43,438 bases of DNA from a virus (taxonomy: Duplodnaviria; Heunggongvirae; Uroviricota; Caudoviricetes): IMG/VR virus record IMGVR_UViG_2703718829_000008, positions 1 to 43,438 of that record. One strand, written 5' to 3'. The notes beneath the pieces are model-generated. The model saw only the letters and a list, made by a program, of their open reading frames with translations, did not search any database and had not been told where the DNA came from. Made by a program: the position numbers and the translations under genes. Numbering within the stretch: position 1 is the stretch's first letter; every line of letters starts with the position of its first letter. Positions 7,819-24,459 of the stretch are shown piece after piece.

Positions 7819-8631
7819 TTAGGCTGCGGTAGAAACATTAACTAGATTTCTCAATACTTCAACTCCTTTTGAGTTGTAGCGGAATGCTTCCACCTGTTTG
7901 CTGGAATGCGCCGATTTATCCAGGAAGAACTTCCCGTACTGCTCAGTTTTGAGGTTGTTTGCGTTAGCAATGCGACCAATCTTGTTGGCCGTTACTCCAA
8001 GCTGCTCTGCAACCTCCCCTGCTGAGTAGTAATGCTCTTCTATTGCCGGAAGGGGTATTGCATTAAAACCAACGATCGGGTTGATTATGCTTGCGGCCGC
8101 AGTCTGCTTTGCTTCCGGCGCAAGATTTGGCATCAAATCGAACAGATTGGTAACAGCTTCAACCGTCATTTTCAATGTTCGCGCTTGACGATACTCAACA
8201 AGTCCACTCGCTGATTTACCGCTTTTAATGTGCGCTTCTTGCATACTTTCAAGTTGGTCTACCAGTGAGCGGCGAACGGCTTTTGACTCGCGAGCGGCAA
8301 CTCGAAGGGCTTGCTTAATTGACATAACAACTTTTTCAGAACTTGTCTTGTTTGATTTTTGAACTACGAAAATTTCGTAGTGCTCACCTTCAAGTTCATC
8401 CTTAATGCGTGCAATAAAGTCGTTATTGCGGACTTCTTTTTCCCCGCACTGTCTACGAGCATGATTGACCATCTCTAACAGGTACTGGCTATCAATGGGT
8501 TTATCCGTGACAACGGATCCGATGTTTGCTACATTCTTAAAAGTCATTAGGCATTCCTTATGTGGTAGTAAGGGTGTGACATAGGCCGCCAGCAGCACAC
8601 TGGCGGTTTTTTTCACCGCCAGATGCGTCAT
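7819..8631 (-). CDS. Putative regulatory/antirepressor-associated protein
   Basis: 270 aa; start overlaps ant-like stop (TAATG); C-terminal HTH-like segment. Confidence 0.35.
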   Translation of the reverse strand: MTHLAVKKTASVLLAAYVTPLLPHKECLMTFKNVANIGSVVTDKPIDSQYLLEMVNHARRQCGEKEVRNNDFIARIKDELEGEHYEIFVVQKSNKTSSEKVVMSIKQALRVAARESKAVRRSLVDQLESMQEAHIKSGKSASGLVEYRQARTLKMTVEAVTNLFDLMPNLAPEAKQTAAASIINPIVGFNAIPLPAIEEHYYSAGEVAEQLGVTANKIGRIANANNLKTEQYGKFFLDKSAHSSKQVEAFRYNSKGVEVLRNLVNVSTAA

Positions 8632-9554
8632 TAATACAGATGAACAGAAGGCGGCAATTCTTTATTCTTAAGCCTTATCCATGCGGAAAGATTTGTTGGT
8701 CCGTCTGGCTCATTGATATCAACATCTCGTGTGTGGTTGATTAAAACGTCTCTCGCCGTTCCGATAACATACGAGAACTCATGGCCGTAGTCGTAGCACC
8801 TGCCAGAATAGTTTGATTGAATGTGCTTTAGCGCCGGATACAGTTCGCGGAATAATGCCTGTGAGCGGTTGGCATAATCCCATAACCATACAAGGCTGTT
8901 TGCTTCTTTTGCAGAAAGCTCGTTGGTTTTCTTCTCTTGTTTGCCGATGAACTCACCTTCAAGTGGAACTCGAGCTGCAAGTGACAGTGCTTCGGCAAAC
9001 TGCTCCTCACTGATTTCTTTGTATGAACACCCAAAATGAGATTTCAGTGACGACCACATGGTGATCATCGCCTTAGCCTGTTTTTCTTTTGGCAGAGACT
9101 GACCTCGACTCATGACGAGTTGTTTAATGGCTTCCTGCTGTTCAGTGGTGATTTTCCCCGGCAACGCCTTTTTAGCTTTGCGTGGATTAACCACATGGCC
9201 TTTAGTCCAGTACTCGTAGAGCACATCGTCACACTCTTCCTGATACTGGATTACCTTGTCGCGGATTTCAGGACGGACTTTGTTAGGACTGATGCTGTTC
9301 AACCAAGCTGCCAATTTTCGTAAAGCCATACAAATCATGGCTTGCACCCCACCGGCAGAAGGTATGGTGATTTCCACCATACCCTTCGAGAAGCGTTGAG
9401 AAATCTTCTTATGTTGAGATTTCCAATCTAGCCCCATTCCCTCAACGATAGGTTTCATTGGGGTGTACGGTTCGCCGTTGTGATTGACAACATAAAGCTC
9501 TGCGCCGTGGAATGGTACATTGATAGTTGATACCGCTGTTGCTATACTTTTCAT
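8631..9554 (-). CDS. Antirepressor-like protein (AntA-type N-terminal domain)
   Basis: 307 aa; lies downstream of an Arc-like gene and divergent from an Mnt-like gene, as in P22 immI. Confidence 0.55.
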   Translation of the reverse strand: MKSIATAVSTINVPFHGAELYVVNHNGEPYTPMKPIVEGMGLDWKSQHKKISQRFSKGMVEITIPSAGGVQAMICMALRKLAAWLNSISPNKVRPEIRDKVIQYQEECDDVLYEYWTKGHVVNPRKAKKALPGKITTEQQEAIKQLVMSRGQSLPKEKQAKAMITMWSSLKSHFGCSYKEISEEQFAEALSLAARVPLEGEFIGKQEKKTNELSAKEANSLVWLWDYANRSQALFRELYPALKHIQSNYSGRCYDYGHEFSYVIGTARDVLINHTRDVDINEPDGPTNLSAWIRLKNKELPPSVHLY

Positions 9555-9620
9555 GTCAGTTTTTCCTCAATACTTACTGGCGATTTAAGCCCTAGATACT
9601 CGCAATATCTGGGGCTTTAC

Positions 9621-9767
9621 TCATTCTGGACAAACAATCCCGTCCTTAGCTACCGACTCCTTAAGCCTCCTCAACACCTCATTGCTGAATGACCGATCAT
9701 CCTTTTTCGCTGACTGCTCCAAAGCTTTTTCGAGCCATTCTGGCATCCTTAACGTTTTTACTTTCAT
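9621..9767 (-). CDS. Arc-like ribbon-helix-helix repressor (48 aa, below track cutoff)
   Basis: Hand translation MKVKTLRMPEWLEKALEQSAKKDDRSFSNEVLRRLKESVAKDGIVCPE; SD AGGAGC 4 nt upstream of ATG. Confidence 0.5.
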   Translation of the reverse strand: MKVKTLRMPEWLEKALEQSAKKDDRSFSNEVLRRLKESVAKDGIVCPE

Positions 9768-9780
9768 TTTCGCTCCTTTG

Positions 9781-9836
9781 GTATGCGGTACGCATACATA
9801 GTATGTAGGTACGCATTGATAGTCAATAGATACCTA
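9781..9836. promoter_or_regulatory. Divergent promoter/operator region between arc-like and mnt-like genes
   Basis: Three palindromes: GTATGC-n5-GCATAC (9781-9797), TACATA-G-TATGTA (9795-9807), ATTGA-TAG-TCAAT (9815-9827). Confidence 0.4.
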
Positions 9837-9872
9837 CATATCCTGTGGTAAAAAATTATTCAGGATACGCTG

Positions 9873-10115
9873 ATGTCTGAACGCAGGTACAAGAACCCAC
9901 AAGTTAATCTTCGACTTCCTGTGGAGATAAAGGATCGCCTAACCGCGTTAGCTGAGGCGAATGGCAGATCTTTAAATGCAGAAATGGTTGCAGCTCTAAG
10001 TGCGTGGGCAGAAGAAAATAAACATGTTCACTCACTTAGCCTTTCTTCCTTAACCGAAAGATTAATAGCTCTTGAGAGAGAGGTTGCAGCCCTTAAAGAA
10101 GCAAACATCAAGTAA
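9873..10115 (+). CDS. Mnt/Arc-family ribbon-helix-helix repressor
   Basis: 80 aa; 'LTALAEANGRSLNAEMV' resembles P22 Mnt 'AEANGRSMNSEL'; divergent from arc/ant. Confidence 0.6.
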   Translation: MSERRYKNPQVNLRLPVEIKDRLTALAEANGRSLNAEMVAALSAWAEENKHVHSLSLSSLTERLIALEREVAALKEANIK

Positions 10116-10138: not shown

Positions 10139-10606
10139 ATGGCATGTCTTAGCAAGGAAGAAAATGAAATCATCAATGTAGAATTTAAAAAAGCATCAGC
10201 AGATGAGTTGCTGATAATCAAGAAATTAATTATCGATGTTAAGAACCATAAAGGGCTATACCAAGATGTCGTAAAGAATGGCGCAGACCTCTACAGTTCA
10301 AAACTTGACATCATGAGAGAAACCGGCTTAGAGGAGATGACCTCCGGTATTCTTGCGAGAACGCTTTGGGGTATCACGCGACCAGAAAAAGAGAACACAA
10401 GACACCTAAGGGTCGGGATTAATGAAGCTGAGTGGTGCTTTGTGGAATGCATATGTAGACACCCCGCTCACCGCCTTCTTCATGGAAAGAAATACGCCAT
10501 CCGCAAAGGAATGAAGATTGGTTTTTTCAAACACATCCACCCTGGACAACTTGTAGGGTGTGGATGTTTATCTAGCCCCATAATTCCAGGATTAAAAAAC
10601 ACTTGA
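10139..10606 (+). CDS. Hypothetical protein co-transcribed with mnt-like repressor
   Basis: 155 aa, AT-rich, SD GAGG upstream, 24 bp after mnt-like stop. Confidence 0.4.
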   Translation: MACLSKEENEIINVEFKKASADELLIIKKLIIDVKNHKGLYQDVVKNGADLYSSKLDIMRETGLEEMTSGILARTLWGITRPEKENTRHLRVGINEAEWCFVECICRHPAHRLLHGKKYAIRKGMKIGFFKHIHPGQLVGCGCLSSPIIPGLKNT

Positions 10607-10965
10607 TAGCGGCCGCAAAGCAGATTGCCACGAAGTTGTTTGCAAAAATACTCCATGACAAGTTAGGACTTGAATAAGTGCTCATGCCGTGCTGATAGCT
10701 CTACTAGCAACTTCATCGCTTCTACCGCGTCTGCCGAGGTTGATTTAGGTGACGCAACAATGGACCTGAGTGTGCTCTATAAACTACACAGGGATAGAGA
10801 ATATGCCAAATTTAGCTTTATCACGGCGGCTAAGTCTGTTTCATCATGGTTTGCGAGTTTGTCTGCTTCTCCTGGGGTATACCCACTCGCAACCAATCGT
10901 GCGTGCATCATCTCTTTGTAAGAGTGTTCAATTGCTTTCATGATAATAACCTATTGGTAATAACT

Positions 10966-10995
10966 TAAAAAAACCCACCTGACGGTGGGTTTTAT
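10966..10995. terminator. Bidirectional rho-independent terminator
   Basis: A7-CCCACC-TGAC-GGTGGG-T tract between convergent genes. Confidence 0.55.
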
Positions 10996-11414
10996 TAGTG
11001 CTTGTATAGGTTGAACTCTCTATCAAGCCATATAACAAAAAATGTCGATCCAAGACGATAACCAACCATGGCTTTCAAATCATCAAATCTAAAAGCCAAG
11101 AAATGATCTACGTCTTCCGTTATATGACTGGGGATACCTGCTTTAATTGCACACCTTGCAATCTTCTCAAATCCAAGCTTATGCCTACCTTGCTGCTTAA
11201 TCTCTGCCCATGTTAGTTGACTTAATCTGTATAATTTATCAGCTAAGCCAGCTTTCTCATCTTTTTGGCATTTCGTTATGCAGTGAGAGCTTTGGATGTA
11301 ACAGAATGAAAATTTCGGTTTCTTTTGATCTGAATTCCCCCCTGACTGCGGCCCTAACTTTAACTTACCTGTAGATTCAGCAGGGGGGATAATCCTTTTA
11401 GATTTTCTTGCCAT
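10995..11414 (-). CDS. Putative toxin partner of Panacea-domain protein
   Basis: Start taken at MARKSKR, 4 nt after upstream stop; basic N-terminal region; C-terminus (VGYRLGSTFFVIWLDREFNLYKH) reminiscent of RelE/YoeB-type strands. Confidence 0.35.
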   Translation of the reverse strand: MARKSKRIIPPAESTGKLKLGPQSGGNSDQKKPKFSFCYIQSSHCITKCQKDEKAGLADKLYRLSQLTWAEIKQQGRHKLGFEKIARCAIKAGIPSHITEDVDHFLAFRFDDLKAMVGYRLGSTFFVIWLDREFNLYKH

Positions 11415-11418
11415 CTCG

Positions 11419-11868
11419 TTAGTTAATCCGAGTTGCAAAGTACTCTGCCATCTCCTTAGAGCTAATTTCAGAACCACCAACACCCTCAATATAGTTTGAT
11501 CTCCATGGTGACTCTTCGTGTGTCATGTTCCTCAGTTTCCAGGCAGAAAATTGCCCAAAAACATCCCAGACTTCTTCTAATAGCTCTAACTGTTCTTCGC
11601 TGAATTTTTCAGCATCAAAAGACTCTGGAGAAGGGATAGCGCCATTACCATATTGTTTATAACGGCGATAAAGCTCAGGAACAACAGGGCCATGCATCCA
11701 GGCTTCCATCTTATTCTGAAAAAGAGGCTCGCCAAGCAACGCCAATGAAAAACCCTGAGCATAGTAAACAAGCTTTTGTAATTTTAAATTAGAGATTGTG
11801 TCACCGCTATCCTCGTCACACCGCGACAGGAAGTAGTCGGCGACATCAAAACAAGTAAGCATGAACAC
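11419..11868 (-). CDS. Panacea-domain (DUF4065, SocA/GepA-like) protein, putative antitoxin
   Basis: 149 aa; 'NLKLQKLVYYAQGFSLALLGEPLF...EAWMHGPVVPELY' matches the DUF4065 pattern as I recall it. Confidence 0.6.
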   Translation of the reverse strand: MFMLTCFDVADYFLSRCDEDSGDTISNLKLQKLVYYAQGFSLALLGEPLFQNKMEAWMHGPVVPELYRRYKQYGNGAIPSPESFDAEKFSEEQLELLEEVWDVFGQFSAWKLRNMTHEESPWRSNYIEGVGGSEISSKEMAEYFATRIN

Positions 11869-12286
11869 ACCTCCATCTTGATAGCCACAGCTAAGTATCC
11901 AACTATGTCAAATGTCATTTAATACTATAACAAAGCTATCAGCAATCCTTCGGAGGCTAACTTACAACCACTTTAGCGACATGTTTAAACCATTACGTTT
12001 CACATTTACTGCATTTTCGCTGAAGTTACCTATAAGGTAATGTCACATTTCCTGCAAGTTTCATGCAATGTTGAAAAGTGAGCTATTCACTTTTCTATGA
12101 CACCAAACACCAAAAATAGCACTTTTTGCTAAATCATTCGTCCAAGTTGTGGATGGTTTGTCGTTGACACGTTTTCACACACCACTCCACCAATAAAGTA
12201 TCATCTGCTATCCTACGCAAAACTAACTGTTGCGTGTTTTTTCTTCATTTAATGGGTAATTGAAATAACCAATACGGATCTCTAAA

Positions 12287-12688
12287 ATGAACATCTTAAA
12301 ATCTACCATCTCAATCCTCTTTCTGCTAAGCCCTTCCGTGTGCTTCTCGTCTGGCGGCCTTACTTCACATCAAGTTTTAGTGGATTGCAACAGAGCTTCA
12401 TCGTCCTTGGTTAGCTCCTATGAAAAGGACGTTCCATTGCAGGAGTCCAAAAGGATGGACCTCATACAGACAATATCCCGCGTATGCCAAGGTGCATACC
12501 AAAACGCTTACGATGGCATGCAGTATGAGGACATTGAAAGAGAGGTTTTATCAAGCGCCAAAAAACAAAAGAAAAATCTTCAAGGAGAAAGCAAAAAAAA
12601 TACCGAGAACAGAACCGGGCTAGTTCTTTCCGCCATTCAGGTAGGGTATTACATATACCATAATGGCGGTCTTGATAATAAAAAATAA
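12287..12688 (+). CDS. Secreted hypothetical protein (signal peptide)
   Basis: 133 aa; hydrophobic N-terminus ISILFLLSPSVCFSSGG; AT-rich; preceded by a 418-bp AT-rich intergenic region. Confidence 0.4.
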   Translation: MNILKSTISILFLLSPSVCFSSGGLTSHQVLVDCNRASSSLVSSYEKDVPLQESKRMDLIQTISRVCQGAYQNAYDGMQYEDIEREVLSSAKKQKKNLQGESKKNTENRTGLVLSAIQVGYYIYHNGGLDNKK

Positions 12689-12708: not shown

Positions 12709-14526
12709 TTAAGGTGTTACACCACTAGAAAATGCCGCGTTTGTTGATACCCGGCTAACTTGCTGATTGACACTTCTGGTAAGAGCATCAACTGTTGTCG
12801 GGTTACTGTTAACAACTACCGTGCCAATAGTTGTACTGCTGCTACGGCTGTTGTCAATTTTTGATGTTGTCTGGCTTGGTGTTGAGGCGATGCGTTGCAG
12901 CTGCTGATAGTAAGCCAACGTCTCGTTTTCTTTTGCATTAAGAGCGGCGCGAATCTTTGGCACATATTCTCGCGTCTCTTTCGGTAAGGTGTTCCAGTAT
13001 TTGGATGATGGTGAATCAAACCCGGTACTGGATATATATTTTAACTTTTTGTCTACATTGCCCATCCCCCAGTTGTAAGCCATCAGCGCATGATTAACAT
13101 TGCCTTTATAGTGCTTTAGCAAATCCCTCATGAACCTTTCAGAAGCAGCGCGAGATTTTACCTCATCAAGACGCTCATCAATCCCATCACCGACCTTTAA
13201 CCCGTACGCTATGGCAGTATCCTTCATGAACTGATACGGACCAACAGCACCTTTCGGGCTGTAAAGTTTTTTACCACCACTCGATTCCACCTCACGAATG
13301 GCATCAAGAAGAGAATCCATGCTTACAGGCTTTACTCCGTCAGGGAGAGGGATATCTGGCTGAATGTTATTGCCATAAATCTCATCTCCCCTACGCCCAA
13401 AATCGGTGTCAAACCCCATGCTGCGCATGGTATCTCCAAGTTCACGCTTAGAGTAATCAAAAGATCCTTTAGCTGCACCCTCAATGTTTTCCCTGTCATT
13501 GTAGAGGTACAAACCATATGCTATTAACCCAGCCAACCATGGAGGAAGGGCGCCGCCTGTAAGTTTGCTTCCTACATATGCTGCTGCCAATAGCTTCAGA
13601 GCCTCTTCCGCGCCACCAACTGCCTTTGTGAATTGCTTCGTCATATTCCCGGCGTCATTGAAAAAGCCAATGATGTCGCCATGATGTTTCTCAATCCAGG
13701 AACCAAAAGCCTTCATTCCGTCAATAACGTCAGGAGCGAATGCCACGGCTAAATTTTGCTTTAATCGGGAAAACTCTGAATCAAGTTGCCCAAGAGTGGC
13801 AGCAACCTTCTCCTGCTCTTTTACCTGCTGTGCTGTAATACGGGATTTCTTTGTTTCTGAATCGACAAGCTGCTTAAGTTCCCCTGATTTTATTTTAGCG
13901 GCATCTGTCGGATCGAACCCTGCGGCAGCCATCACCTGCATCAGGTTTTCTTGAGAATGAGTCTTGCCATAGCGAGAAAACTCAGCAAGAGCCTTGTTTG
14001 GGTCGCCGAGCTTATTGATATCTAATCCGGTACGAGCGCCAAGAACCAGCAAATTTTGGGCAGCGCCAGTAAGCCCTCCCATAACAGTTGGATCGGCAAT
14101 ATTTGCCAAAGCCATTCTGGCATTCCCAGAAGATGAAATGAACGAGTCACCGTTAAGACCAGCCTGGCGAAATCCCCGCTGAACACCAAACATCTTATTA
14201 ACATCAGAACCGAAAAACTTGGCCTGTTGACTGGCTCTCACGATTTCGTTGGCAGTAGATGTAAAAAGTTGCTTGATTCCATACAACCCGGCGCCAATTC
14301 CCAAAAATCCAGCGGCTGCGGTTGTCACGTTGCGGAAAGCTGAAACAGCGGTTTTACCGAACCTCTCCGTTTCCTGCCGCTGTTTTTCAAGTTCCTTTAG
14401 CCTTTCCTTCTCAGCCCTGGAAAGATCTTTGTTTAATTTACTAACTTCATCTTTTACTTTCCGTTTTCCATTCAGGAATTCATCGGCCTTAATTGTGACC
14501 TTGTAGGCCAACTCATTGATAATCAT
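12709..14526 (-). CDS. Tail tape measure protein with lytic transglycosylase (SLT) domain
   Basis: 605 aa; coiled-coil N-terminus; 'EVESSGGKKLYSPKGAVGPYQFMKDTAIAYG' SLT-like motif; follows frameshifted chaperone pair. Confidence 0.55.
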   Translation of the reverse strand: MIINELAYKVTIKADEFLNGKRKVKDEVSKLNKDLSRAEKERLKELEKQRQETERFGKTAVSAFRNVTTAAAGFLGIGAGLYGIKQLFTSTANEIVRASQQAKFFGSDVNKMFGVQRGFRQAGLNGDSFISSSGNARMALANIADPTVMGGLTGAAQNLLVLGARTGLDINKLGDPNKALAEFSRYGKTHSQENLMQVMAAAGFDPTDAAKIKSGELKQLVDSETKKSRITAQQVKEQEKVAATLGQLDSEFSRLKQNLAVAFAPDVIDGMKAFGSWIEKHHGDIIGFFNDAGNMTKQFTKAVGGAEEALKLLAAAYVGSKLTGGALPPWLAGLIAYGLYLYNDRENIEGAAKGSFDYSKRELGDTMRSMGFDTDFGRRGDEIYGNNIQPDIPLPDGVKPVSMDSLLDAIREVESSGGKKLYSPKGAVGPYQFMKDTAIAYGLKVGDGIDERLDEVKSRAASERFMRDLLKHYKGNVNHALMAYNWGMGNVDKKLKYISSTGFDSPSSKYWNTLPKETREYVPKIRAALNAKENETLAYYQQLQRIASTPSQTTSKIDNSRSSSTTIGTVVVNSNPTTVDALTRSVNQQVSRVSTNAAFSSGVTP

Positions 14527-14741
14527 CGCTGCTCCTGATGTTTATTCCAGACCCGCTTGTTAAATGATTCCACCGAGATAATTTCCAGAAGGTTATACAT
14601 ATCACGAACAGATAACCGTTCCTGCAAATCGGTATAAGTGGCTTTTCCTGAACAGATAATGGCGTTCATTGATGGTGTGACGTTTACGGGGCTAACGAGT
14701 TTTGCCGGAAGAGTCTCCTCCTCCATGAACGGGTACTTCAC
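14523..14741 (-). CDS. Tail assembly chaperone -1 frame extension (T-like part of G/GT)
   Basis: ORF in -1 frame relative to upstream chaperone, starts GTG; reached from slippery site at 14756-14762. Confidence 0.45.
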   Translation of the reverse strand: MKYPFMEEETLPAKLVSPVNVTPSMNAIICSGKATYTDLQERLSVRDMYNLLEIISVESFNKRVWNKHQEQR

Positions 14742-15145
14742 TCTCCGGCGATCGTTAAAAAATCAAAATTGACTTTAAATACCTTATCCATTACCTGACG
14801 AATGGTTGATACCTCTTCAAAGTCGACAGGCTTCACGGTTCGCACCTGTCTGCTGCCTTCGTGTGTAATCACAATTTGCACAGTTGACATCAGGCGATCA
14901 CGAAGTTTTCTGGCGACTTCCGGCGATGCAGCAGAAATAACATTCAGACCAAGGGTGGCAAGGCCAGCGCACCCCATGGCAATAACATCAGCAGGAATAC
15001 CAGAGAATCCCGATTCCCCCATGGAGCGGAATAAATCCTGTGCCAGTTCGTCGGCATCCCATGCCGACATCTCTGTGATAATGAACTCCTTCCCATTGTC
15101 GCGATTATCGTCTTCCACGATAAAGGGGATTTCTTTACGTGCCAT
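14738..15145 (-). CDS. Tail assembly chaperone (G-like)
   Basis: 135 aa acidic protein between tube and tape measure. Confidence 0.5.
   Translation of the reverse strand: MARKEIPFIVEDDNRDNGKEFIITEMSAWDADELAQDLFRSMGESGFSGIPADVIAMGCAGLATLGLNVISAASPEVARKLRDRLMSTVQIVITHEGSRQVRTVKPVDFEEVSTIRQVMDKVFKVNFDFLTIAGE
14756..14762 (-). promoter_or_regulatory. Candidate programmed -1 ribosomal frameshift site (T_TTT_TTA)
   Basis: Heptamer lies 6 codons before the chaperone stop; -1 reading continues ...FFNDRRRVKYPFMEEE into the downstream ORF. Confidence 0.5.
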
Positions 15146-15579
15146 CAGATAGTGCTCCGTGTTACAGACTCAAAGTGAAATACTGCCGGGCGTGGTTGCA
15201 GTACGCGCCGACCCGGAGGAGTTGGAGTCCATGTATAAAGAACCCCGTTCACAAAATTCCACTTCGCGCCGAGAGCCGGAACTGTAAGCACCGCATTACA
15301 CTGAAACGCTGAAATTGCAGTTCTCTCCGCTGCATACCAGTCATCAATCAGCGAGCCAGCATTGGATGTGGGCATCAGGTTGATGGTGAACTCTGTCGGG
15401 TTAAAGATAAAACCAGCATGGTATTTACCGTCCGCTGACATCATGTCTTCTTTGTTCTGTAGTGCGCCAGTTTCAAACATGTTATCAGCTGCGTAGTCGT
15501 CAACATCAAAACCGCCAGGGTAGTAAGCGGGTACGACGATTCGCAGCTTACTGTTTGCCGAGGTGATATCTATAGGCAT
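15145..15579 (-). CDS. Tail tube protein
   Basis: 144 aa, immediately downstream of sheath-like gene. Confidence 0.4.
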   Translation of the reverse strand: MPIDITSANSKLRIVVPAYYPGGFDVDDYAADNMFETGALQNKEDMMSADGKYHAGFIFNPTEFTINLMPTSNAGSLIDDWYAAERTAISAFQCNAVLTVPALGAKWNFVNGVLYTWTPTPPGRRVLQPRPAVFHFESVTRSTI

Positions 15580-15590
15580 GATTTATTCCC

Positions 15591-17081
15591 TTATAAAATC
15601 GCGGTTGAGGACATTGTGATGGACTGGATTAACTGACCATCGACATAATAAAAAATGACACCTTTCAGATCGCGCTCAATGCGTGCAGAGCCTGACTGTG
15701 TCGGGATGTACAGGAACCAGCCCTGTGAATACAGCGTCGATGAGATATCTTTTCCAACTGTGTTATTCACAATTCTGGTTTGCGCATTATCAAGTTTCAC
15801 GCCACGCTGAATAGCCCCGAAATTGAGAGCCTGTTCAGCAACATCAATAACAGCAGCAGAAACTGCGCCGTATCCTGTCTCATTGAACGGGTAAGACTGG
15901 TTATTGGTGAACAGGTTGGCAAAAGCACTAACCAGATTGGCATTAATCCATACCTGATTAATAAAACTGTCCAGCCATACAAACTTGCCAGTAATGGCGC
16001 CATCAGATGCGTACTGCGCCATTGTTTTGTTCAGGCTGTATGAGCCGTAGAAGTTGTAACCGTTTGACTTCAGTGCCTGAGCGGTCGCCAGATCGCTTAC
16101 GTTGGGTGCTAACCCTGAAAATCCACGGAACTTGAACGAGATACGCCCATTGGTGCGTGCAAAATCCACGGATGCAGCATATGCCAGTGCTGTAACGCTA
16201 TACAGGTATGTTCCGTACACCGGAAAAATGTTCTCGTAGCCATTTGCCACAACCACTTTCTGCACAAAGCAATTGGCATTATTGGCTACCGTTCCTGCTG
16301 AAGTGGTGTCGTGAACAACATATCCAAACCGGTTTTTACTGCTGCTTGCCCATGCGCACAATTCTGTTTTCTGGTCATCGGCCAGTTCGACCAGCGAGTT
16401 AAACAGGATCCAGTTCTGGTTGACGTTGATGATGTTGTTCATCGTGTCTGTCAGAGTTACCGCATCAGAACCCGGTGATACAATCGCTGCGGAATCCTGC
16501 GTCAGTAATAACCCGGCAGCCAGAGCGCCAGCAGAGGCATAAGACACTTCACTCTCTGCGCCAGTAGTGGCAGAGCGAATGATGAATCGGTTAGCGATTG
16601 GCAACCATTCAACCACCACCTTGCTTGCACCAATTCCAACCTGCAACTTGGACGCAATGTCACTAAAACTTGTGGCTGTGGACAAATCAATTGATGTGCT
16701 GGTAGTCGACTCACCGTCAATGGAAAGGGTGATTGTTCCTGCTGGAATCGCTTTCAGTGTTGCCAGGGCAACACCTTTCAGGTTGCCGGACAGAAGATAC
16801 CCAGCCACTGGTGAAGTAACAATACGATACATCAGCAGTTCACCAGGAATAACGGATGAATTTTCGTATCCGTTAAAATACTGTTGTGCTGCGAGGAATT
16901 CTTTCGATTCACTCCCCATCAAAGCTGATACATCAGATGAGGAGTAATAAGATTGTACCGCGCCAACCGGGATAAGCTCGTTATCGGTCAACATCAGGCC
17001 GTTAGCATCAACCGCAGAACCGGCAGGCGTAACGACATTGGGCGTGATATTAAAATCTACAGATAAAGGGATTGTGCTCAT
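15591..17081 (-). CDS. Tail sheath protein
   Basis: 496 aa, size and synteny (sheath-tube-chaperone-tape measure). Confidence 0.45.
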   Translation of the reverse strand: MSTIPLSVDFNITPNVVTPAGSAVDANGLMLTDNELIPVGAVQSYYSSSDVSALMGSESKEFLAAQQYFNGYENSSVIPGELLMYRIVTSPVAGYLLSGNLKGVALATLKAIPAGTITLSIDGESTTSTSIDLSTATSFSDIASKLQVGIGASKVVVEWLPIANRFIIRSATTGAESEVSYASAGALAAGLLLTQDSAAIVSPGSDAVTLTDTMNNIINVNQNWILFNSLVELADDQKTELCAWASSSKNRFGYVVHDTTSAGTVANNANCFVQKVVVANGYENIFPVYGTYLYSVTALAYAASVDFARTNGRISFKFRGFSGLAPNVSDLATAQALKSNGYNFYGSYSLNKTMAQYASDGAITGKFVWLDSFINQVWINANLVSAFANLFTNNQSYPFNETGYGAVSAAVIDVAEQALNFGAIQRGVKLDNAQTRIVNNTVGKDISSTLYSQGWFLYIPTQSGSARIERDLKGVIFYYVDGQLIQSITMSSTAIL

Positions 17082-17593
17082 GGGCGGTTATCCACCTGTT
17101 CAGTTGAAATTTCTGCTTTGTCGAAATAGTCCTGCTGGAACGACACGGTGATGTGTGCTTGCAGGGAAAGAGTTAACGTGTAACGCTCCTGCCACTGACT
17201 CTCGGCGTTGATCATCGGCGCCTGAATGGCAGGAGATGAGTAAAGCGGTGCAAGCCGTGCATCAATAGCCTTGATGATGTCGTAGCCATATCCACTGGTG
17301 AATGTTGTTTCCAGTGCAATAGCTCTATCCCCTGCCCCCTGACCATAGATATCTACCTGAATATCAGCCTGGCGAACTTCCGTATATCCCATGGTGCTTG
17401 TGTCCGGAGAGCCGGTATCTTGTTTAAGCTCTCTCGTAGTGGATAGTCTGGTGAATCGCAAAGGAGTCAGGATACAGAACTGATCTTTGGGCATTGGTAC
17501 ACGGTTAGCCTGAGCCTGCAGGCATTTACCAGCGATAGGTTCTATGTAGCCAGCAAGTACATCGATAATATTATCGACAGTGAAATCATTCAT
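17078..17593 (-). CDS. Tail completion / head-tail joining protein
   Basis: Start at internal Met (ATGA overlap with upstream stop); track ORF extends to 17626. Confidence 0.3.
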   Translation of the reverse strand: MNDFTVDNIIDVLAGYIEPIAGKCLQAQANRVPMPKDQFCILTPLRFTRLSTTRELKQDTGSPDTSTMGYTEVRQADIQVDIYGQGAGDRAIALETTFTSGYGYDIIKAIDARLAPLYSSPAIQAPMINAESQWQERYTLTLSLQAHITVSFQQDYFDKAEISTEQVDNRP

Positions 17594-17967
17594 GGGCTTA
17601 CCTGCAATACAGCAACCAGTCGGCACCAGTCAGGCCACAACTCTATTGGCTCAACAACAAGCCATTGTTCCCCGTTAATCACGAAGATATCTCCGCCCTG
17701 CTCCAGTTCTCGCTGAACACTGAAGTAATTACCATTGACGTAAATCACTTTTGCCAGCCCCTGAATATTCAGTCCATCGACGTGTTGCATGTCGCCGCGA
17801 CTGATTGGCTGTAGTTGAATGGTAACGTTCTGGTCAGGGAGATAAGACGGAATCGGCTTGCGACCGGGGCCGATAGTTTCACCTGCATACTTTTTCAGGA
17901 TTGCCGGGATGTTGGGGTTAATGCTTGTGATCGCGTTATTGGCTATCTGTCGAAGATTCAATTTCAC
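17590..17967 (-). CDS. Head-tail joining protein
   Basis: 125 aa, synteny. Confidence 0.3.
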   Translation of the reverse strand: MKLNLRQIANNAITSINPNIPAILKKYAGETIGPGRKPIPSYLPDQNVTIQLQPISRGDMQHVDGLNIQGLAKVIYVNGNYFSVQRELEQGGDIFVINGEQWLVVEPIELWPDWCRLVAVLQVSP

Positions 17968-18502
17968 CTACCTCATAATCAACAGCCCTTAACATGTCCC
18001 CGGTCCATATGAGAGGCTTGTTGTTGCTCATATCAACATCAACCTTTTTCACCGGACCGAAATAGCCCGGACCACCAAAAACATCTTCTCTGGCCTTCAC
18101 TACATCCCACTTAGTCATTTCCGCCCTGTTATTAGGGAATCTACTTCTTAGAAGTACTGTTACCGGGCTTAATGGCGGCTCTTGAATAGTTCGAATGGAT
18201 TCCTGAATGTCTGCTTTTATGATCTCGCCGATAAGATTCAGAACAGTATCCGTATCTCCGTCATGCGATTTCATGAGCTTTTCGACCTTTTCTGACCACT
18301 CTTCAGATTTAGAAGCTATAGCATTCCTGAAGAATGGCCTTGGCGGACTTCCACTTGCCGGGTTACCAAATTCGTTAGATGCTGCAACCATTGGCATAGA
18401 AGTACCATCCGGATAGGTGGCATCTTCAAGAAACCCGACCTTCAATTGCTTTGAGGACAACTCACTACCAACTGAATCAAGGAACTCCATCACCTTATCC
18501 AT
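17936..18502 (-). CDS. Head-tail joining / neck protein
   Basis: 188 aa, synteny. Confidence 0.3.
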   Translation of the reverse strand: MDKVMEFLDSVGSELSSKQLKVGFLEDATYPDGTSMPMVAASNEFGNPASGSPPRPFFRNAIASKSEEWSEKVEKLMKSHDGDTDTVLNLIGEIIKADIQESIRTIQEPPLSPVTVLLRSRFPNNRAEMTKWDVVKAREDVFGGPGYFGPVKKVDVDMSNNKPLIWTGDMLRAVDYEVGEIESSTDSQ

Positions 18503-18933
18503 CAGTACCTCCGGTAATACCCATACGGGTAATTTGATGGAGAATGCCCGCTTATATACTGGAAGGTGCGAAACGGCGCCGTAGCATTCCAGTAATCAGC
18601 CCCGTACTTTGTTTGCATGTACCATGCTGAATTTGCTGTTCCCCCTGGCATATCGGCATGAACGCTAACTGAACCCTCTGAAGCACTGTCGATTCTTCCA
18701 ACCAATCCGGATGGAGACTGCCCATTCGCTCCTGAATACAAACAGGCGATATGGGCAACCAGCATATTCAGCAGCATTGAGCGTACAGCCAAATCCGACA
18801 CACGACTTGAGTCTGTGTTATCGAGATAAATGGTTGCTTGCGTGAAATACTGCTGAAGAAGTGCGTCGTCGACAGATGATAATTCAGGATAGCGTAGCTT
18901 AAATGCGGAGGGGTCAAATATTACGACGCCCAT
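18502..18933 (-). CDS. Head completion / connector protein
   Basis: 143 aa, synteny. Confidence 0.3.
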
Positions 18934-18945
18934 TTGCTGCTCCCG

Positions 18946-19293
18946 CTATTTTTCGTCAGCCTTTTTTACGCCCGGAGCCGGATTTTCCGGGTCAAGGCCT
19001 TCAAGGCCAGTTTTTGATTCTTTCAGATCTTTACCCTGCGCATTCAGACTGCGAATATCTTTCTGAATGAAGATTGCATTGTTCTGAATATACGCGGCAT
19101 CCTTATAGGTCTCGATGAACTTATCCATGAAGTCTTTCTCGACCATGGTAACTCCGAAAGCCCCCTCAGGAATTGCACCATCAAGACCACGGAGGGCGGT
19201 TGTTGCCGCCCCGTTCAGGATTACTGTTTTGCCATCCAGAGTTACCTGAAGGCCATTTGGCAATTTGCAGCCAACGCTTACCGTTTCTGCCAT
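18946..19293 (-). CDS. Hypothetical head protein
   Basis: 115 aa downstream of major capsid gene. Confidence 0.3.
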   Translation of the reverse strand: MAETVSVGCKLPNGLQVTLDGKTVILNGAATTALRGLDGAIPEGAFGVTMVEKDFMDKFIETYKDAAYIQNNAIFIQKDIRSLNAQGKDLKESKTGLEGLDPENPAPGVKKADEK

Positions 19294-19296
19294 GAA

Positions 19297-20337
19297 TTAA
19301 ACTCCCAACATGCTTGCAAATGCCAGCGGCTGGCGAATGATTGCGCCCCAGGTGCCACCGGTTTTCTTTTGTTTGTACGCGGACAGGTCAACAACAACTG
19401 GATGCGCACGCATTTTTTCGGTAAATGCGCAGTAGCCGGTGTCCTGACCATCCAAATCGTCGGCGATCAGCTGAACCAGTTCGCCGGATTCGGTTTTGTA
19501 CTCGACAGCAGTAACAACGCGCAGGTTCGGGAAGTTTTTCTTCAGCTGATCAGACACGTTGACGTTGTACATGTTGGTCTTGGTCAGATTTGCTTCTGAC
19601 TCTGGACTCATCGCCAGCGTCATCTTGCTGTCTCGCTCAACGTACCCCTTGGTCTGCTTCACTAACTGCATGTAAAGCGCCTGGATATCGTCATACACCG
19701 CCTGACCATCTTTGGTTGCCCAGGTAGTTCCGCTGCCAGTACCCGTTGCGCCCGGGGTGATTGATGCCGGAAGGTTAGGGTCATTCAGAATGCCGTAGTT
19801 CTTCAGGCCAGCAACGCCGAAGAAGTAGGACTTGTTCTGAAACTTATTCAGGGTCAGCGCAGAAGCAGTATTCAGTTGTTGTGCCCATGCAATGCGGCCT
19901 TCACCGTAACGGTCAAGTTCCAGCTCCCCCCACTGAGTAATGGTCTGGTACAGATAGGACTCACGAGCAACCCAGTTGACGTTTGCATTTACCTGCCCAT
20001 TATTGTTGTAGTCACCATAACTGGAAACCTGACCCGTTGATTCCACAACCGGGAATTGTGCGGTCATGGTGGTCCAGTCTCCCTTCTTCGTTTCCCCCAG
20101 AATTTCCACCGCTTTCATCGGAGTGACAAGGATGCGAATCAGTTCCGGGTCAACGTAATTAGTGAAGTACCATGGAATGCCAGAGTTACTGGTTGTTACC
20201 AGTGAAGGCTGAGAGTCCATTGCATAGGAATAGCTATTAGCAACAGCATCCGTCAGATAGGCTTTGGCTTCCGGAAGGATTACACCGTAATCTCGCTCAG
20301 CCATAGCTTTATGTTGTAAAAATTCTGCGTTATTCAT
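19297..20337 (-). CDS. Major capsid protein
   Basis: 346 aa, position after protease/scaffold and small structural protein. Confidence 0.55.
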
Positions 20338-20340
20338 GTA

Positions 20341-20820
20341 TTAGCTCCAGGTGCCCATCTGAATCAATTCGCCAGCCTCGCCAGCACTGCCAACAACAAA
20401 TTTTGTTTCAACGTAATCCGAGATTGACGCCCCGGCATCGCCAGCGGTAATGGTTCCATCTGACAGTTTGGCGAAAATCTTCTGCCCTACGGTTGCCGCA
20501 CCGGCAGTTTTCACCCAGTAGTCGCCAGCAGTCATCAATGTCATCTGAACTCCAGGCTGAATAGTCATAGATGATTCACCAAGCCATGTGGTGACAGACG
20601 CCTGCCCTTCCCGATGAACGAAGCCGGCAGGAGCACCGGTTCCAGTGTTATTGACAACACCATTGCTTACCCATGCAAAGCGACCAACAACAACCCCATT
20701 TGCACCGGCAACAAGAGCGCCCTCACCTGCAAGAAGACTTGCTTTAGGGTTAGCCGAAGCGAAATCCCCTTCAACTCCCGGCGCCTGTTGCTGATTAATT
20801 ACACTTTGAAAGCCACTCAT
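20341..20820 (-). CDS. Small capsid structural/decoration-like protein
   Basis: 159 aa, Gly/Ala-rich, between protease/scaffold and capsid. Confidence 0.3.
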   Translation of the reverse strand: MSGFQSVINQQQAPGVEGDFASANPKASLLAGEGALVAGANGVVVGRFAWVSNGVVNNTGTGAPAGFVHREGQASVTTWLGESSMTIQPGVQMTLMTAGDYWVKTAGAATVGQKIFAKLSDGTITAGDAGASISDYVETKFVVGSAGEAGELIQMGTWS

Positions 20821-20823
20821 TTC

Positions 20824-22050
20824 TTAGCTCCGTTTCAGTTTAGTTGCGCCAGGAAATGCCTTGGCGAAAGAATTGGTTGCAGCAGAATCCATCCCCATAC
20901 CATGAGATGGTTTGCGAACTACCGCTTTCTGGCTGATAGCAAATTCAACCATCGATTTAAGTGCTGAAGGATGAACGCCTTTATGTTCGGCACCGATTGA
21001 ATCAAGAGCAAAGCGATAAATAGACTCTGCGGAATCCATGGCGACCAGACTCACATCACCAACCAAAGCACGAACGCATTCTCGAGCCTCATTGGCTTGA
21101 CGGATACGCCCCATCACATTCTCTTCAGCTTTTCGAATCAATGCGGCATCCATAGCTGCTTTATTCTCATCATCGTCTTCATCCTCGGCAGTCTTTTTAT
21201 CCTTGCCGTCATCATCTTCGTCTTCCGCTTCTTTGCGGTCACGATCGCGGTCCGTTCGCTCACGTTCTTCACGCTCTTTTAGTTCATCCTCTTCACGTTT
21301 CAGACGCTCTGCTTCTGACTCATTATCTCTCTCGGCCTGAGTGGCTTCGTCTTCAACAACCTTTTGCACTTTCTTTTCCACTTCTTCTGGCTTCTCATCA
21401 CTGGCCAGCATCGGCGTGATAACTGCCATTAACTTTTTAGTAAGTTCTGACATTGATTTCATTCCTGTTGGTATTGAATCCCCGACAACAACGTCGGATC
21501 CGGCTCTTCCCTCTGTTACGAGAGCAACGTGGTTCCCGACGATATCGCGCATTACACCATCGTATGGCTGGCCTTCATGCACGCCGGGGGTCATGTCAGC
21601 TACATATCTGTAGGCCGACGAAAGTTCTTTCTTCTCGTCTGTCTCGATTCCAGCGATAGAATCTGCGTCCCATACGACAAGCGAGTTCTTGAGATAAGTC
21701 CCGTCAAACTCAGCATCAGTACCAGTAGAACCAACCACAGCCATCTTCTGAGGGTCTGAAGCAGTAACCGGAATGTGTTCGTTAAGGAGCGGGATGTTGT
21801 TGAATGTAGATGCTGCTTTGGCTAACTCTTTCGGGTCACGAAGCAGGTAGTAAACCTTGTCAGGCTGTAAACCTAGCGATCTGTAATTAGGGATTTCACG
21901 TCCATAATAAGGGCAAACGTTAGCCTTACTGATTGGCGTCACTTCGATATGCAAACGCCCATCCTTATCAAAGGAGCGCACCGTTGCCTTGTCGAATGCC
22001 AATCCGTGATATCCCCATTGCCAGTCGCCTTTAACTTTGCGTAATGGCAT
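20824..22050 (-). CDS. Prohead protease/scaffolding-like protein with acidic low-complexity core
   Basis: 408 aa; central E/D/R/K-rich stretch; position between Mu-F-like gene and capsid. Confidence 0.4.
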
Positions 22051-22184
22051 GCTTTTACCTTTCGGCAGGCAATAAAAAAGCCGCAGTAGCGGCCATTATT
22101 TCCTCTTGGGCATAGCTATTTTCAGTAGTGCAATCATTAAGCAACCAAAAATCAACACTAAGCCCAGAGACCATAAAACCTCAA

Positions 22185-23003
22185 TCATTTTCTATCTATC
22201 CCAGGGATAACAGGAGACCACGTACAACGGCAGTTGATAGCCTCTCCCGGCAGCACCCATTCACCATCGAGATACAGCCCTTTATCGAGGTCGAACTCTT
22301 TACCGTCAGCTTTCACATGGGATGGTCTTGGCTGCTTCCCGGCGTGTGAGTGACGCCAGATTCCTTTGGTGATTCCTAACTTCTTCTGCCGTTCAGACTG
22401 AATTACCGCTGTAGCTTTGTTGTTCTGATCGCGTGCAATCGTCTCAGCGCGTCTGCGTGTAATGCCATATCGCTTAACCAGTTCATCAGTGAGATAGCCA
22501 AGGTCACGACCACGGCTGACAGACTGCATGACTATCGTCTCAACCTGTGTGTGATAGTGTTCAGGTATGGATTTAATCAGGTTGACGTTCTCGTTAACGA
22601 CAGCCTGCATCACGTTCTTAAGCTCGTCATTCATTGTGAACTTAACGGTAAATCCGCCAGCCTTTAACGCTGAGTGTAACGAAACGTCGGTGTTGCGCAG
22701 TGTCTTATCAACAAAGCGATCAGCCAGTTTCTTAGCCAGTTCATTGAATTTATGCTCCCACTGCTTGCCTAGTCTGGACAATCTGCGCTTTAACTCATTC
22801 GCGGGACTGGAATCCATCGCCATGTTGTTTTTGTATGCGCCCTCAAGCCAGTATCGGTATGACTTATCCATCTCCCTAACCAGCTTGAGAAGCTCAGAGC
22901 GATACCACTCATGAACTCCGGCGTTGGCTCTGACTGGACGAAGGATTTTCCGGTTCTTCGAATCCTTCTTCGATGGACTCGTTTTCGTACTCTTCTTCGT
23001 CAT
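22185..23003 (-). CDS. Phage Mu gpF-like head morphogenesis protein
   Basis: 272 aa; C-terminal '[10 protein letters not shown]' and '[17 protein letters not shown]' typical of Mu F-like minor head proteins. Confidence 0.55.
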
Positions 23004-24459
23004 ATTCAGATTCCATCATGTGGTATGGGCTGGCCTTATCCGACTGGCGCATGCTTCTTATTGCATCAAGATCGAACACGCCAGCTTCGGCATAGTTCTT
23101 GTCAGCCTCAGACTGATGTTTCATGATCTCGGCTTTCTCTGCTTCTGTAAGCTCATACAGAGGCAGGAACTCAAAATCAATGTCAGGGTCAATCTCGCCA
23201 AATTCGTTTAACTGGATAACATCCAGTACTGTTTTCAGTGGTACTCTGAACAGATTCTCCTGCATGGCGTGGATTGAGTCATAGAAGACGCGGATTTCTC
23301 CATCAGATGACGCGTTTAGCCCGTTAGGAGTGATGCCAAGGAGCTTAACCAGGGGAATGCTTGATACCGATGCCATTTGTTCCTGTGCTTGAGCCTGAAG
23401 AGCATCGACTCCGGACAGACTTGTCACAAACTGGAAGAATTCTTCCGCATCCTTATCAATAAGGAACATTCCGCGATTGTCGCGAACCTTATTGAAGAGC
23501 TCGGCACGCATAAACAGGTTTGGGTCTGCAATTCCAGACAAGGCATTCTGCATGTTCGTCTTCAGCCCGTAGACCACAAACGAATGAACCAGATCGCTAA
23601 CGCTGTCACGTGTTCTCAGCCAGTTTTGCACATATGGCTCTGCCATCTGACTCAGCGACAAGCCGCCGAAGTTGTACGCCGCTTTGAGAATGTCTGGCAC
23701 CTGGCGAGAAATCATTGTCAACATGCGACTGGCGTGAACCGTGCGCCCCATGACATACCATTCAGATGGATTGAAGAAGTCAGGGCTTAGAGGATTGTCA
23801 GCGTTATACACGCCCGGGTAAGTCCACATAGCCTCGACAACGCGGAAACCATTCAGGCTTCCTTTGGTAATCTTGCGCGGACTGATATCGAGCTTCTTAT
23901 CCAGTTCGTCGGGAACCAGCCAGGCTGAGTTACCGCTTGGCGTCTTCACGTCGATATAAATCTGTCCGCGTCCGAAGTAGCCGTCATGTTCCGCCGCCTC
24001 GCGAAACTTCTCTCGCACTCTGAAACGCTTTAATGCGTCGTCAAGCTGGCGAATCTTATCGGCCTTGTCGTCACCATCGTCTTTACCTACATGCTTCAGC
24101 TCAATCCATTTTCGCGTCATCTCTTCTGCTATCGTGCCAGTAATCTTGCGATACTCCGGCAACTGAGCAAGTTGAGACAGATATGGGTAGCCAGGAAATC
24201 CACCGTAGCCATATGAGGTGATGTTTGCTGAGTTAAGGTAACTGTACGGCGTGGAGTCCATCGCCAGAGCTGACTCCCCAATATGTTCAGGAATAACGCC
24301 TGGCGGGGGTACGTATCTCTCAATTCTACGCAATGCCTCGCCTTCATTTTTAATTCGCTCCTGTTCGTTAATAATCGCAAGAACATTCGCCAGAGACATT
24401 GGCTGTTTCGCCTCTTCTTTCTGAGGCTCAGATTTTTTCTTTCTCAAAAAATTAAACAC
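22909..24459 (-). CDS. Portal protein
   Basis: 516 aa directly downstream of terminase large subunit, acidic C-terminus. Confidence 0.6.

Follow-up and report, generated by a model that had tools for sequence, protein, structure and literature searches.

An open reading frame (ORF) at 12287–12688, on the + strand of a 43,438-nucleotide (nt) stretch of DNA from a tailed virus (Caudoviricetes; IMG/VR record IMGVR_UViG_2703718829_000008, hereafter the window), is a real gene that starts at ATG 12287, encodes a precursor with a conserved signal peptide, and lies as cargo beside the tail tape-measure gene in an arrangement that matches the sieA region of phage P22. Our analysis tentatively suggested that its product may be a periplasmic protein with which a lysogen excludes superinfecting phages. 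The ORF is probably a typical prophage moron encoding a small envelope protein, with a suggested role in exclusion, and the family to which it belongs is uncharacterised.

The gene and its start codon

The gene model involves three features:

12287..12688, + strand: cargo ORF, a complete coding sequence with stop codon for a precursor of 133 amino acids (aa) (ORF list, homologues, ω)
12276..12278, + strand: weak Shine-Dalgarno core GGA, 8 nt 5' of the ATG (upstream alignment)
12455..12688, + strand: 77-aa RefSeq/PGAP version from Met57 (WP_047085296.1, E. coli), a truncated gene call (annotation tables)

The ORF runs from ATG 12287 to TAA 12688, with an in-frame stop upstream of it at 12266–12268, and is present in the ORF list just as the first-pass annotation, made from the window alone, had described it. 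Codon comparison of eight loci gave a ratio of non-synonymous to synonymous substitution rates (dN/dS, or ω) of 0.11–0.36 for the whole gene and of 0.03–0.15 for codons 22–56, the best-conserved part of the protein, where synonymous sites are saturated and dN is 0.07–0.1. Between the window and Pectobacterium, for example, these codons differ by 21 synonymous changes (25 sites) and 6 non-synonymous changes (80 sites). In addition, the ORF is open from ATG1 in every genus compared, and ATG1 and the Shine-Dalgarno sequence are conserved at the same spacing across genera, the latter in the context ACGGAT in the window and AAGGA, AAGGAG or ACGGAG at the same place in relatives. These comparisons indicate that the ORF is a real gene and that its long form, starting at ATG 12287, is the correct one.

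Public annotation of the E. coli gene gives the 77-aa form on 511 contigs and the 133-aa form on 11. The Met57 start adopted there removes the signal peptide and the best-conserved 35 residues. As the whole ORF is 100% nucleotide-identical in two E. coli chromosomes annotated with the short form, the short call reflects an annotation choice and no disruption of the gene. The corresponding reading, that the true product is a 77-aa cytoplasmic protein and the upstream "signal peptide" is untranslated, can point to its use in RefSeq, to an AGGAG 9 nt 5' of ATG 12455, and to the sole sigma-70 consensus match, which would place the transcription start inside codons 1–5; it is scarcely credible against the saturation of synonymous sites at low dN in codons 22–56, the open frame from ATG1 in all genera, a signal-peptide character that is kept although its sequence turns over, and the invariant Cys34 upstream of a Met57 that itself varies (L or F in relatives). 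The PGAP gene model was ruled out by dN/dS. The E. coli gene is thus mis-annotated as 77 aa on hundreds of contigs, which hides its signal peptide, and a corrected gene model is one by-product of this work.

Signal peptide and predicted mature protein

12287..12349, + strand: predicted signal peptide, codons 1–21, MNILKSTISILFLLSPSVCFS, with a signal peptidase I (SPase I) cut after Ser21 and without lipobox (28-member alignment)
12350..12685, + strand: mature, predicted periplasmic domain of ~112 aa with four predicted helices (AlphaFold2)

The N-terminus, MNILKSTISILFLLSPSVCFS followed by SGG, has one Lys in its n-region, a 9-residue Kyte-Doolittle maximum of 2.3, and C-F-S at -3/-1. A heuristic scan recovered the tripartite n/h/c pattern with an aligned -3/-1 site in 28/28 family members, bearing out the earlier description of the N-terminus as signal-peptide-like: their n-regions hold one to three Lys/Arg and zero acidic residues, their 9-residue hydropathy maxima are 2.1–3.1, and the predicted cleavage sites are CFS↓S in the window and SLA↓A, LMA↓A and SMA↓S in distant members. 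The protein therefore appears to be a Sec-exported substrate of signal peptidase I and not a lipoprotein. Anchoring through Cys19, as in a lipoprotein exclusion factor of the Cor, Llp or Ltp type, was considered in view of the cysteine near the end of the hydrophobic core, of a Citrobacter subgroup whose I-A-S-C fits the lipobox, and of a BFVD match labelled "Lipoprotein [Cronobacter phage A24]" (E = 0.29). This alternative is very improbable. In the window Cys19 sits in P-S-V-C, which violates the lipobox at -3 and -1; the position is Ser or Leu in Yersinia/Serratia members and Tyr in one Citrobacter member; only four sequences out of 28, all from Citrobacter, fit [LVI][ASTVI][GAS]C; and a good SPase I site lies 2–5 residues beyond the cysteine in all members. 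The lipoprotein reading was ruled out by this non-conserved lipobox.

The AlphaFold2 model, built on a 9-sequence alignment, has a mean predicted local distance difference test score (pLDDT) of 82, with a core above 90, and predicts helices at residues 27–46, 53–75, 80–97 and 103–126. Two cysteines, Cys34 (12386–12388) and Cys67 (12485–12487), are invariant; they lie on adjacent antiparallel helices with residue numbers summing to about 100, a geometry, taken from the helix assignments and not from coordinates, that makes a disulfide linking helices 1 and 2 probable. The 13 invariant columns are C34, N35, S39, L41, E53, R56, C67, Y71, A74, G77, Q79, D82 and G120, and 14 further columns are at least 90% conserved, including Q68, Y80, E84 and R85 within a "DGMQY(E/K)DIER" motif. 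The conserved polar positions suggest a specific binding surface.

The hydropathy scan found no second hydrophobic span besides the signal peptide. After residue 95, hydropathy over 19 residues peaks at 0.74, and the amphipathic last helix bears Asp or Lys in distant members; a C-terminal membrane anchor was ruled out by this hydropathy together with the charged residues. The mature product should thus be a soluble periplasmic protein. To the extent that sequence analysis can tell, the earlier claim that the protein is secreted holds, given the conserved signal peptide, the two invariant cysteines and the lack of a further hydrophobic segment. The mature part had also been called Lys/Glu-rich, which is overstated: of its 112 residues 10 are K and 7 are E, against 13 S, 10 L and 9 each of G and Q; the pI is 8.5, and the Lys-rich patch (residues 91–105) is a variable loop that is missing from the Citrobacter subgroup.

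A narrow family

Among 5.8 billion protein clusters, 34 related clusters were found, from E. coli, Salmonella, Citrobacter, Pectobacterium, Yersinia enterocolitica, Serratia fonticola and metagenomes, with 36–93% identity to the window protein among full-length members. Homologues at 40–93% identity lie in prophages of E. coli, Salmonella, Citrobacter, Yersinia, Serratia and Pectobacterium, and purifying selection on them is strong. An exhaustive profile search returned 4 representatives among 1.84 billion proteins. The family is thus real but very narrow, so that work on one member would characterise the whole of it.

The absence of a recognisable domain, reported from the first reading of the window, was confirmed: Pfam, PHROGs and NCBIfam gave zero family matches for the ORF product, a Pfam search with the 28 members at E up to 10 returned chance-level matches only, and a 12-bit PADLOC match to SspC was treated as chance. 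No similarity to Ivy, PliC/MliC, Bor or Lom was found in the Pfam/NCBIfam searches. Similarly, tblastn against 50,697 phage genomes gave zero matches, as did a profile search of the PDB by sequence. Foldseek found nothing significant in the PDB (best E 0.98), and its best match in BFVD (E 0.12) is too weak to use; the weak BFVD matches were small uncharacterised phage proteins, "Valyl-tRNA synthetase modifier" entries and one "lipoprotein". Several more specific candidates were rejected. A relationship to CpxP/Spy, suggested by an LTSHQ motif, was dropped as the LTXXQ family profile gave no match; DUF3718, the UniRef label of a Serratia member (P0020), was not among the Pfam families matched by the 28 members at E up to 10; and a likeness to YebO found no Pfam match beyond chance in the same search.

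A cargo gene among tail genes

12709..14526, - strand: convergent tail tape-measure gene, 605 aa, with a C-terminal SLT lytic-transglycosylase domain (Pfam, PHROGs)

The ORF and the tape-measure gene converge with 20 nt between their stops, so the first-pass annotation had rightly placed the ORF next to the tape measure. Tape-measure PHROG matches cover the N-terminal two-thirds of the 605-aa protein; Pfam SLT matches at residues 402–498 (2.9e-19), and phrog_2013, "lytic tail protein", at 4.6e-191. The same neighbour was seen in 9 related loci, and in most loci the gap between the gene ends is -11 to 38 nt. In the tail modules examined that hold both the ORF and a visible tape measure, the latter bears an SLT domain, except in locus L014 (a 656-aa candidate, no SLT match recorded). 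Genes for a tail assembly chaperone, a tube and a sheath lie upstream of the tape measure on the - strand.

Comparison of prophages revealed that the ORF is accessory. Out of 5,426 complete E. coli genomes, 16 carry the window tape measure at ≥95% identity; the ORF is present in 9/16 of these prophages and absent or replaced in the other 7, where the sequence match ends exactly at the tape-measure stop codon. In EC16, an unrelated 157-aa gene (WP_052922733.1, L021:3025-3498) occupies the slot beside a 96%-identical tape measure; its product has a signal peptide, and the gene lies behind the same upstream block TTGCGTGCTTTTGCTTCAGTTA. In TW10590 the slot contains no + strand gene. In a metagenomic relative (L007) the ORF alone separates the tape measure from the first baseplate gene, and in Serratia prophages it lies elsewhere, in a different tail module, between baseplate-J and gp25-like genes, accompanied at one locus by Arc and antirepressor (immI) genes. 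GF-2 and Edno5, relatives that have been isolated as phages, share the general layout, with other genes in the slot and without the ORF.

Morons in the sense of Juhala and Hendrix are extra genes between adjacent genes, with deviating composition, their own promoter and terminator, and expression from the prophage (PMC3594210). The ORF is such an extra gene, as seen in L007 and from its absence in 7/16 prophages, GF-2 and Edno5. Its base composition deviates as well: the guanine plus cytosine (GC) content is 42.0% in the ORF and 31.7% in the 60 nt upstream that belong to it, vs 46.1% in the tape-measure gene and 48.2% in the tail/head structural block (12709–26000), in agreement with the earlier remark on an AT-rich gene on the strand opposite to the tail genes. 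These comparative data indicate that the ORF is a moron, or cargo gene, lodged within the tail cluster of a temperate myovirus prophage of the GF-2/E217-like kind, and the label of cargo given to it at first reading stands on its strand, its lower GC, its presence, absence or replacement beside the same tape measure, and its position as sole insert in L007. Absence from close relatives had been named in advance as a finding that would tell against the gene; such absence was indeed found, in 7/16 prophages, but it is expected for an accessory gene and speaks for cargo status, not against function.

The structural module at 12709–26000 has no close isolated relative; its best tape-measure matches, at 30–32% identity, are the Edwardsiella phages GF-2 and Edno5 (genus Gofduovirus). 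In Pectobacterium carotovorum (L003, SGPR01000010.1, 8001–10386), the ORF and an SLT tape-measure gene lie in an apparent decayed prophage remnant, which is without sheath, tube and baseplate genes.

A slot shared with P22 sieA

9873..10115, + strand: Mnt-like Arc-family repressor gene (Pfam Arc 1.8e-10)

A P22-type immI module occupies 7819–10115, between the tape measure and baseplate genes of this contractile-tailed prophage, and contains two antirepressor-like genes, Arc, the Mnt-like gene and operator-like repeats at 9787–9840; part of it is 79% DNA-identical to the mnt region of the P22-like podovirus CUS-3. In loci L010, L012 and L025 a Mnt-like/Arc gene lies directly 5' of the ORF on the same strand, with gaps of 45–84 nt, and in other loci the ORF is downstream of a LexA/S24-type repressor gene.

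In the P22 record, gene 16, for an ejection protein, is convergent with sieA with 22 nt between stops, and sieA has its own annotated promoter, with the mnt terminator, orf59a and mnt lying 5' of it. The order mnt-sieA-gene 16 matches both the window and phage Emek. The ORF thus resembles sieA in slot and orientation: both follow mnt in an immI module and converge on a gene whose DNA-delivery product is ejected. Produced by the prophage, SieA prevents the injection of P22 DNA, and phages escape it through mutations in the ejection proteins gp16 and gp20 (PMC10883804). Several differences separate the two: the sieA promoter is annotated, whereas that of the ORF is only inferred from a conserved upstream block; SieA has three membrane spans (PMC10883804), whereas the ORF product has a cleavable signal peptide and no span; and the phage that hosts the ORF is a contractile-tailed myovirus, not a podovirus. 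Homology was not detectable, hhalign giving a probability of 0.1% for the family profile against SieA, and on that figure a SieA homologue was ruled out.

Other occupants of the slot are known. Emek orf129 (Sf6 gp38-like, from a podovirus) and the EC16 157-aa protein are, like the ORF product, alternative occupants with N-terminal signal peptides; their sequences are unrelated to it (hhalign 0.1–0.3%), and they are equally uncharacterised. The slot occupants examined, namely SieA, Emek orf129, the EC16 protein and CUS-3 HkcB (with an N-terminal hydrophobic segment), are all envelope-directed. This slot beside a DNA-delivery gene is a recombination hotspot that gathers unrelated envelope-targeted proteins in P22-like and GF-2-like phages, and is for that reason a good place to seek new exclusion factors; its recognition as a shared, exchangeable slot in both phage groups is a second by-product of the analysis.

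The upstream region

10964..12226, - strand: inserted cassette of a Panacea (SocA-like) antitoxin and a partner toxin, between the mnt-like gene and the ORF (megablast, Pfam, PHROG)
12230..12260, + strand: conserved non-coding block TTGCGTGTTTTTTCTTCATTTAATGGGTAAT, candidate promoter or regulatory element (comparison of loci)
12214..12244, + strand: weak terminator-like hairpin ACGCAA-9 nt-UUGCGU followed by a U-run, across the cassette junction (RNA fold)
12210..12227, + strand: 18 nt, TATCCTACGCAAAACTAA, homologous to the leader of P22 sieA and Emek orf129 (sequence comparison)

The long AT-rich region noted upstream of the ORF at first reading exists (418 nt, 36.6% GC), but most of it is not the ORF's own, because it is supplied by the cassette: 11869–12226 belongs to this insertion, and only ~60 nt (12228–12286) travel with the ORF. 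The cassette as a whole is 99% identical to the P22-like phages phiv205-1 and Emek, has its left boundary at a hairpin (10966–10997), and is missing from L002, L005, L007 and L010; it looks like a recently exchanged toxin-antitoxin or defence module and, on this comparison, is outside the ORF's own unit. At its right end, the 18-nt leader TATCCTGCACAAAACTAA, found just 5' of the sieA ribosome-binding site, recurs at 12210–12227 and upstream of Emek orf129; with these 18 nt the imported P22-like segment ends on its right side, the megablast alignment to Emek and phiv205-1 reaching as far as 12226.

The 31-nt block within the ~60 nt keeps 68–84% identity with the loci of Salmonella, Yersinia and Citrobacter, despite the saturation of synonymous sites in the ORF, which suggested that the block is probably regulatory. 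The same block, TTGCGTG(C/T)TTTTGCTTCAGTTA, precedes the unrelated secreted-protein gene of E. coli EC16. Its end in most relatives is the start of a -10-like hexamer, TAAAAT or TAGAAT, which is degenerate in the window (TAATTG), and TTGCGT lies 21 nt from this hexamer, too far for a standard promoter. No second copy of the block was found elsewhere in the window; because it is not repeated there, it is no shared operator.

The hairpin at the cassette junction has a predicted energy of -6.2 kcal/mol (z = -1.9). Between two E. coli prophages (window 12214–12236 vs L001:6315-6337) both of its arms have changed, CGCAA/UUGCG vs CACAA/UUGUG, which hints that the structure is kept, although only two sequences were compared and EC16 has a mismatch. 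Downstream of the ORF, the 20 nt before the tape-measure stop leave no space for a terminator, and a weak terminator-like site (12825–12853) lies inside the tape-measure gene. Because the promoter is unassigned, the -10-like hexamer degenerate and a hairpin with U-run present upstream, the ORF could be poorly expressed in this particular prophage.

Proposed function and alternatives

We tentatively propose, at somewhat less than an even chance, that the ORF encodes a lysogen-expressed periplasmic superinfection-exclusion protein, a reading based on position, orientation and predicted location. The Sec pathway would export the 133-aa precursor, and signal peptidase I would cut it after about residue 21 to leave a soluble ~12.5-kDa four-helix periplasmic protein, probably with the Cys34–Cys67 disulfide. 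Situated in the sieA slot, 3' of an mnt-type repressor gene that lysogens express from an immI-like module, and converging on the gene for a virion-ejected, envelope-crossing protein (here the SLT-bearing tape measure), the ORF would provide a protein made in the lysogen that stops superinfecting phages at the wall-penetration or DNA-injection step. The independent transcription and lysogenic expression supposed at first reading are plausible in view of the synteny and of the conserved upstream block. Exclusion might be achieved by binding an incoming tail-tip component, either the tape measure or the transglycosylase domain within it, in the way that the gp5 lysozyme is bound by Spackle, or alternatively by acting on a host periplasmic factor needed by the phage; the SLT-bearing tape measure is a plausible target.

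Known systems offer partial precedents. T4 Spackle, an exported bundle of helices that bears a disulfide, acts in the periplasm to inhibit the lysozyme of the incoming tail (PMC7677548). Like it, the ORF product is a small exported protein with an α-helical bundle and one disulfide (predicted only, in our case), and the ORF adjoins the gene for the tail's wall-degrading enzyme, the kind of enzyme on which Spackle acts. The two differ in mature length (75 aa in Spackle vs 112 aa here), in the enzyme concerned (a T4-type lysozyme on the spike as target, here an SLT domain fused to the neighbouring tape measure) and in setting (an early gene of a virulent phage, here prophage cargo), and a Spackle homologue was ruled out since neither sequence nor fold matched. 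The likeness would concern design and not family membership. HK97 gp15, the founding moron beside a tape-measure gene, is prophage-expressed and gives a tail-dependent block of genome injection (PMC3594210); it shares with the ORF the insertion of a small envelope-protein gene next to the tape-measure gene, within the tail operon in its case, but gp15 is a YebO-like inner-membrane protein, whereas the ORF product has no Pfam match and is predicted to be soluble, and the gp15 gene lies upstream of the tape measure and is not convergent. TP-J34 Ltp targets the tape measure, according to the citation of Bebeacua et al. (2013) in PMC10883804. Ltp and Cor/Llp, encoded by prophages or phages, are likewise exported and stop infection on the outer side of the cytoplasmic membrane; they are lipoproteins, unlike the ORF family, which has no conserved lipobox, and no homology to them was found. 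A literature search for periplasmic exclusion proteins directed at tape measures yielded no applicable case.

Several observations weigh against exclusion. The same tape-measure allele occurs with the ORF, without it, or with a substitute, so there is no allele-specific pairing of ORF and tape measure, and in Serratia the ORF lies 3 kb from the tape measure. No homology was found to the exclusion proteins compared (SieA, Spackle). As for expression, the otherwise conserved -10-like hexamer is degenerate in the window, a sigma-70 scan did not exceed shuffle expectation and gave no convincing promoter in the window, the sole sigma-70 consensus match (12260–12288) overlaps the ATG, and the terminator-like hairpin and U-run stand just 5' of the ORF. 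Moreover, the position would fit phage exclusion and other envelope-directed lysogenic-conversion functions alike.

The main rival follows from this last point: the product may be a lysogenic-conversion factor whose benefit to the host is unrelated to phages, such as protection against colicin, lysozyme/transglycosylase, complement or envelope stress, or modulation of a periplasmic pathway. It accords equally well with cargo status and with the predicted location in the periplasm, many functions of this kind are encoded by morons (among them Lom, Bor, and Cor, which protects against colicin M; PMC3594210), the family is found in gut and plant pathogens, and a specific binding surface is suggested by the invariant N35, E53, R56, Q79 and D82 together with Q68, Y80, E84 and R85, which are nearly invariant. 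We regard it nevertheless as rather unlikely, as the product resembles neither Ivy, PliC/MliC, Bor, Lom nor any Pfam/NCBIfam family, the 13 loci link the ORF tightly with immI modules and clusters of tail genes and not with virulence islands, and the characterised P22 occupant of the same slot is an exclusion gene (PMC10883804).

A bolder version of the exclusion proposal would make the product a soluble periplasmic inhibitor that binds the lytic-transglycosylase end of incoming myovirus tape measures, an independently evolved counterpart of Spackle, and the slot an exchangeable "secreted-protein socket" with a shared promoter block, through which P22-like podoviruses and GF-2-like myoviruses would swap envelope-acting exclusion proteins beside the DNA-delivery gene. 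In this full form we consider it quite unlikely.

It is also improbable that the ORF is a functionless hitch-hiker, silent in this prophage after decay of its promoter and separation from the mnt transcript by the cassette. The hexamer TAATTG in place of TAAAAT/TAGAAT, a Shine-Dalgarno sequence weaker than in relatives, the hairpin with U-run just upstream, and the toxin-antitoxin cassette between the ORF and mnt are all in keeping with silence, but independent E. coli genomes, whether or not they contain the cassette, share an intact ORF at 100% identity, purifying selection acts on the family, and the P22 sieA-slot leader imported with the cassette could supply transcription.

More improbable still is a role in the lytic cycle, in which the protein would not be lysogen-expressed and would act from the periplasm to restrain the tape-measure transglycosylase or the lysis machinery (timing, lysis from without). 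The ORF does abut the SLT tape-measure gene in most loci, and no lysogenic promoter has been demonstrated in the window; it lies, however, on the strand opposite the whole late operon, the same as the repressor genes, it is dispensable, as the 7/16 near-identical E. coli prophages, GF-2 and Edno5 without it attest, and unrelated genes would not take the place of one whose function, be it essential or in timing, depended on the tape measure.

Should the exclusion function prove real, a soluble periplasmic protein would join the short list of injection blockers, which are mostly membrane proteins or lipoproteins, and would provide a handle on wall crossing by contractile-tailed temperate phages with a transglycosylase-bearing tape measure.

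Other features of the region

8631..9554, - strand: antirepressor gene (Pfam/PHROG search)
9621..9767, - strand: Arc gene (Pfam/PHROG search)
11419..11868, - strand: Panacea/SocA-domain antitoxin gene (Pfam SocA_Panacea 1.9e-24)
10995..11489, - strand: gene for a phrog_8366 protein with a weak PADLOC match to NsnC, overlapping the antitoxin gene (PHROG, PADLOC)

The first two genes belong to the immI module and the last two to the cassette. A search of Rfam found no RNA family in the window. Directly 3' of the Mnt-like gene, on the same strand, lies a 155-aa ORF (10139–10606) without a Pfam match; it has a partial PHROG match (residues 86–153) to a "head morphogenesis" family and is another cargo gene.

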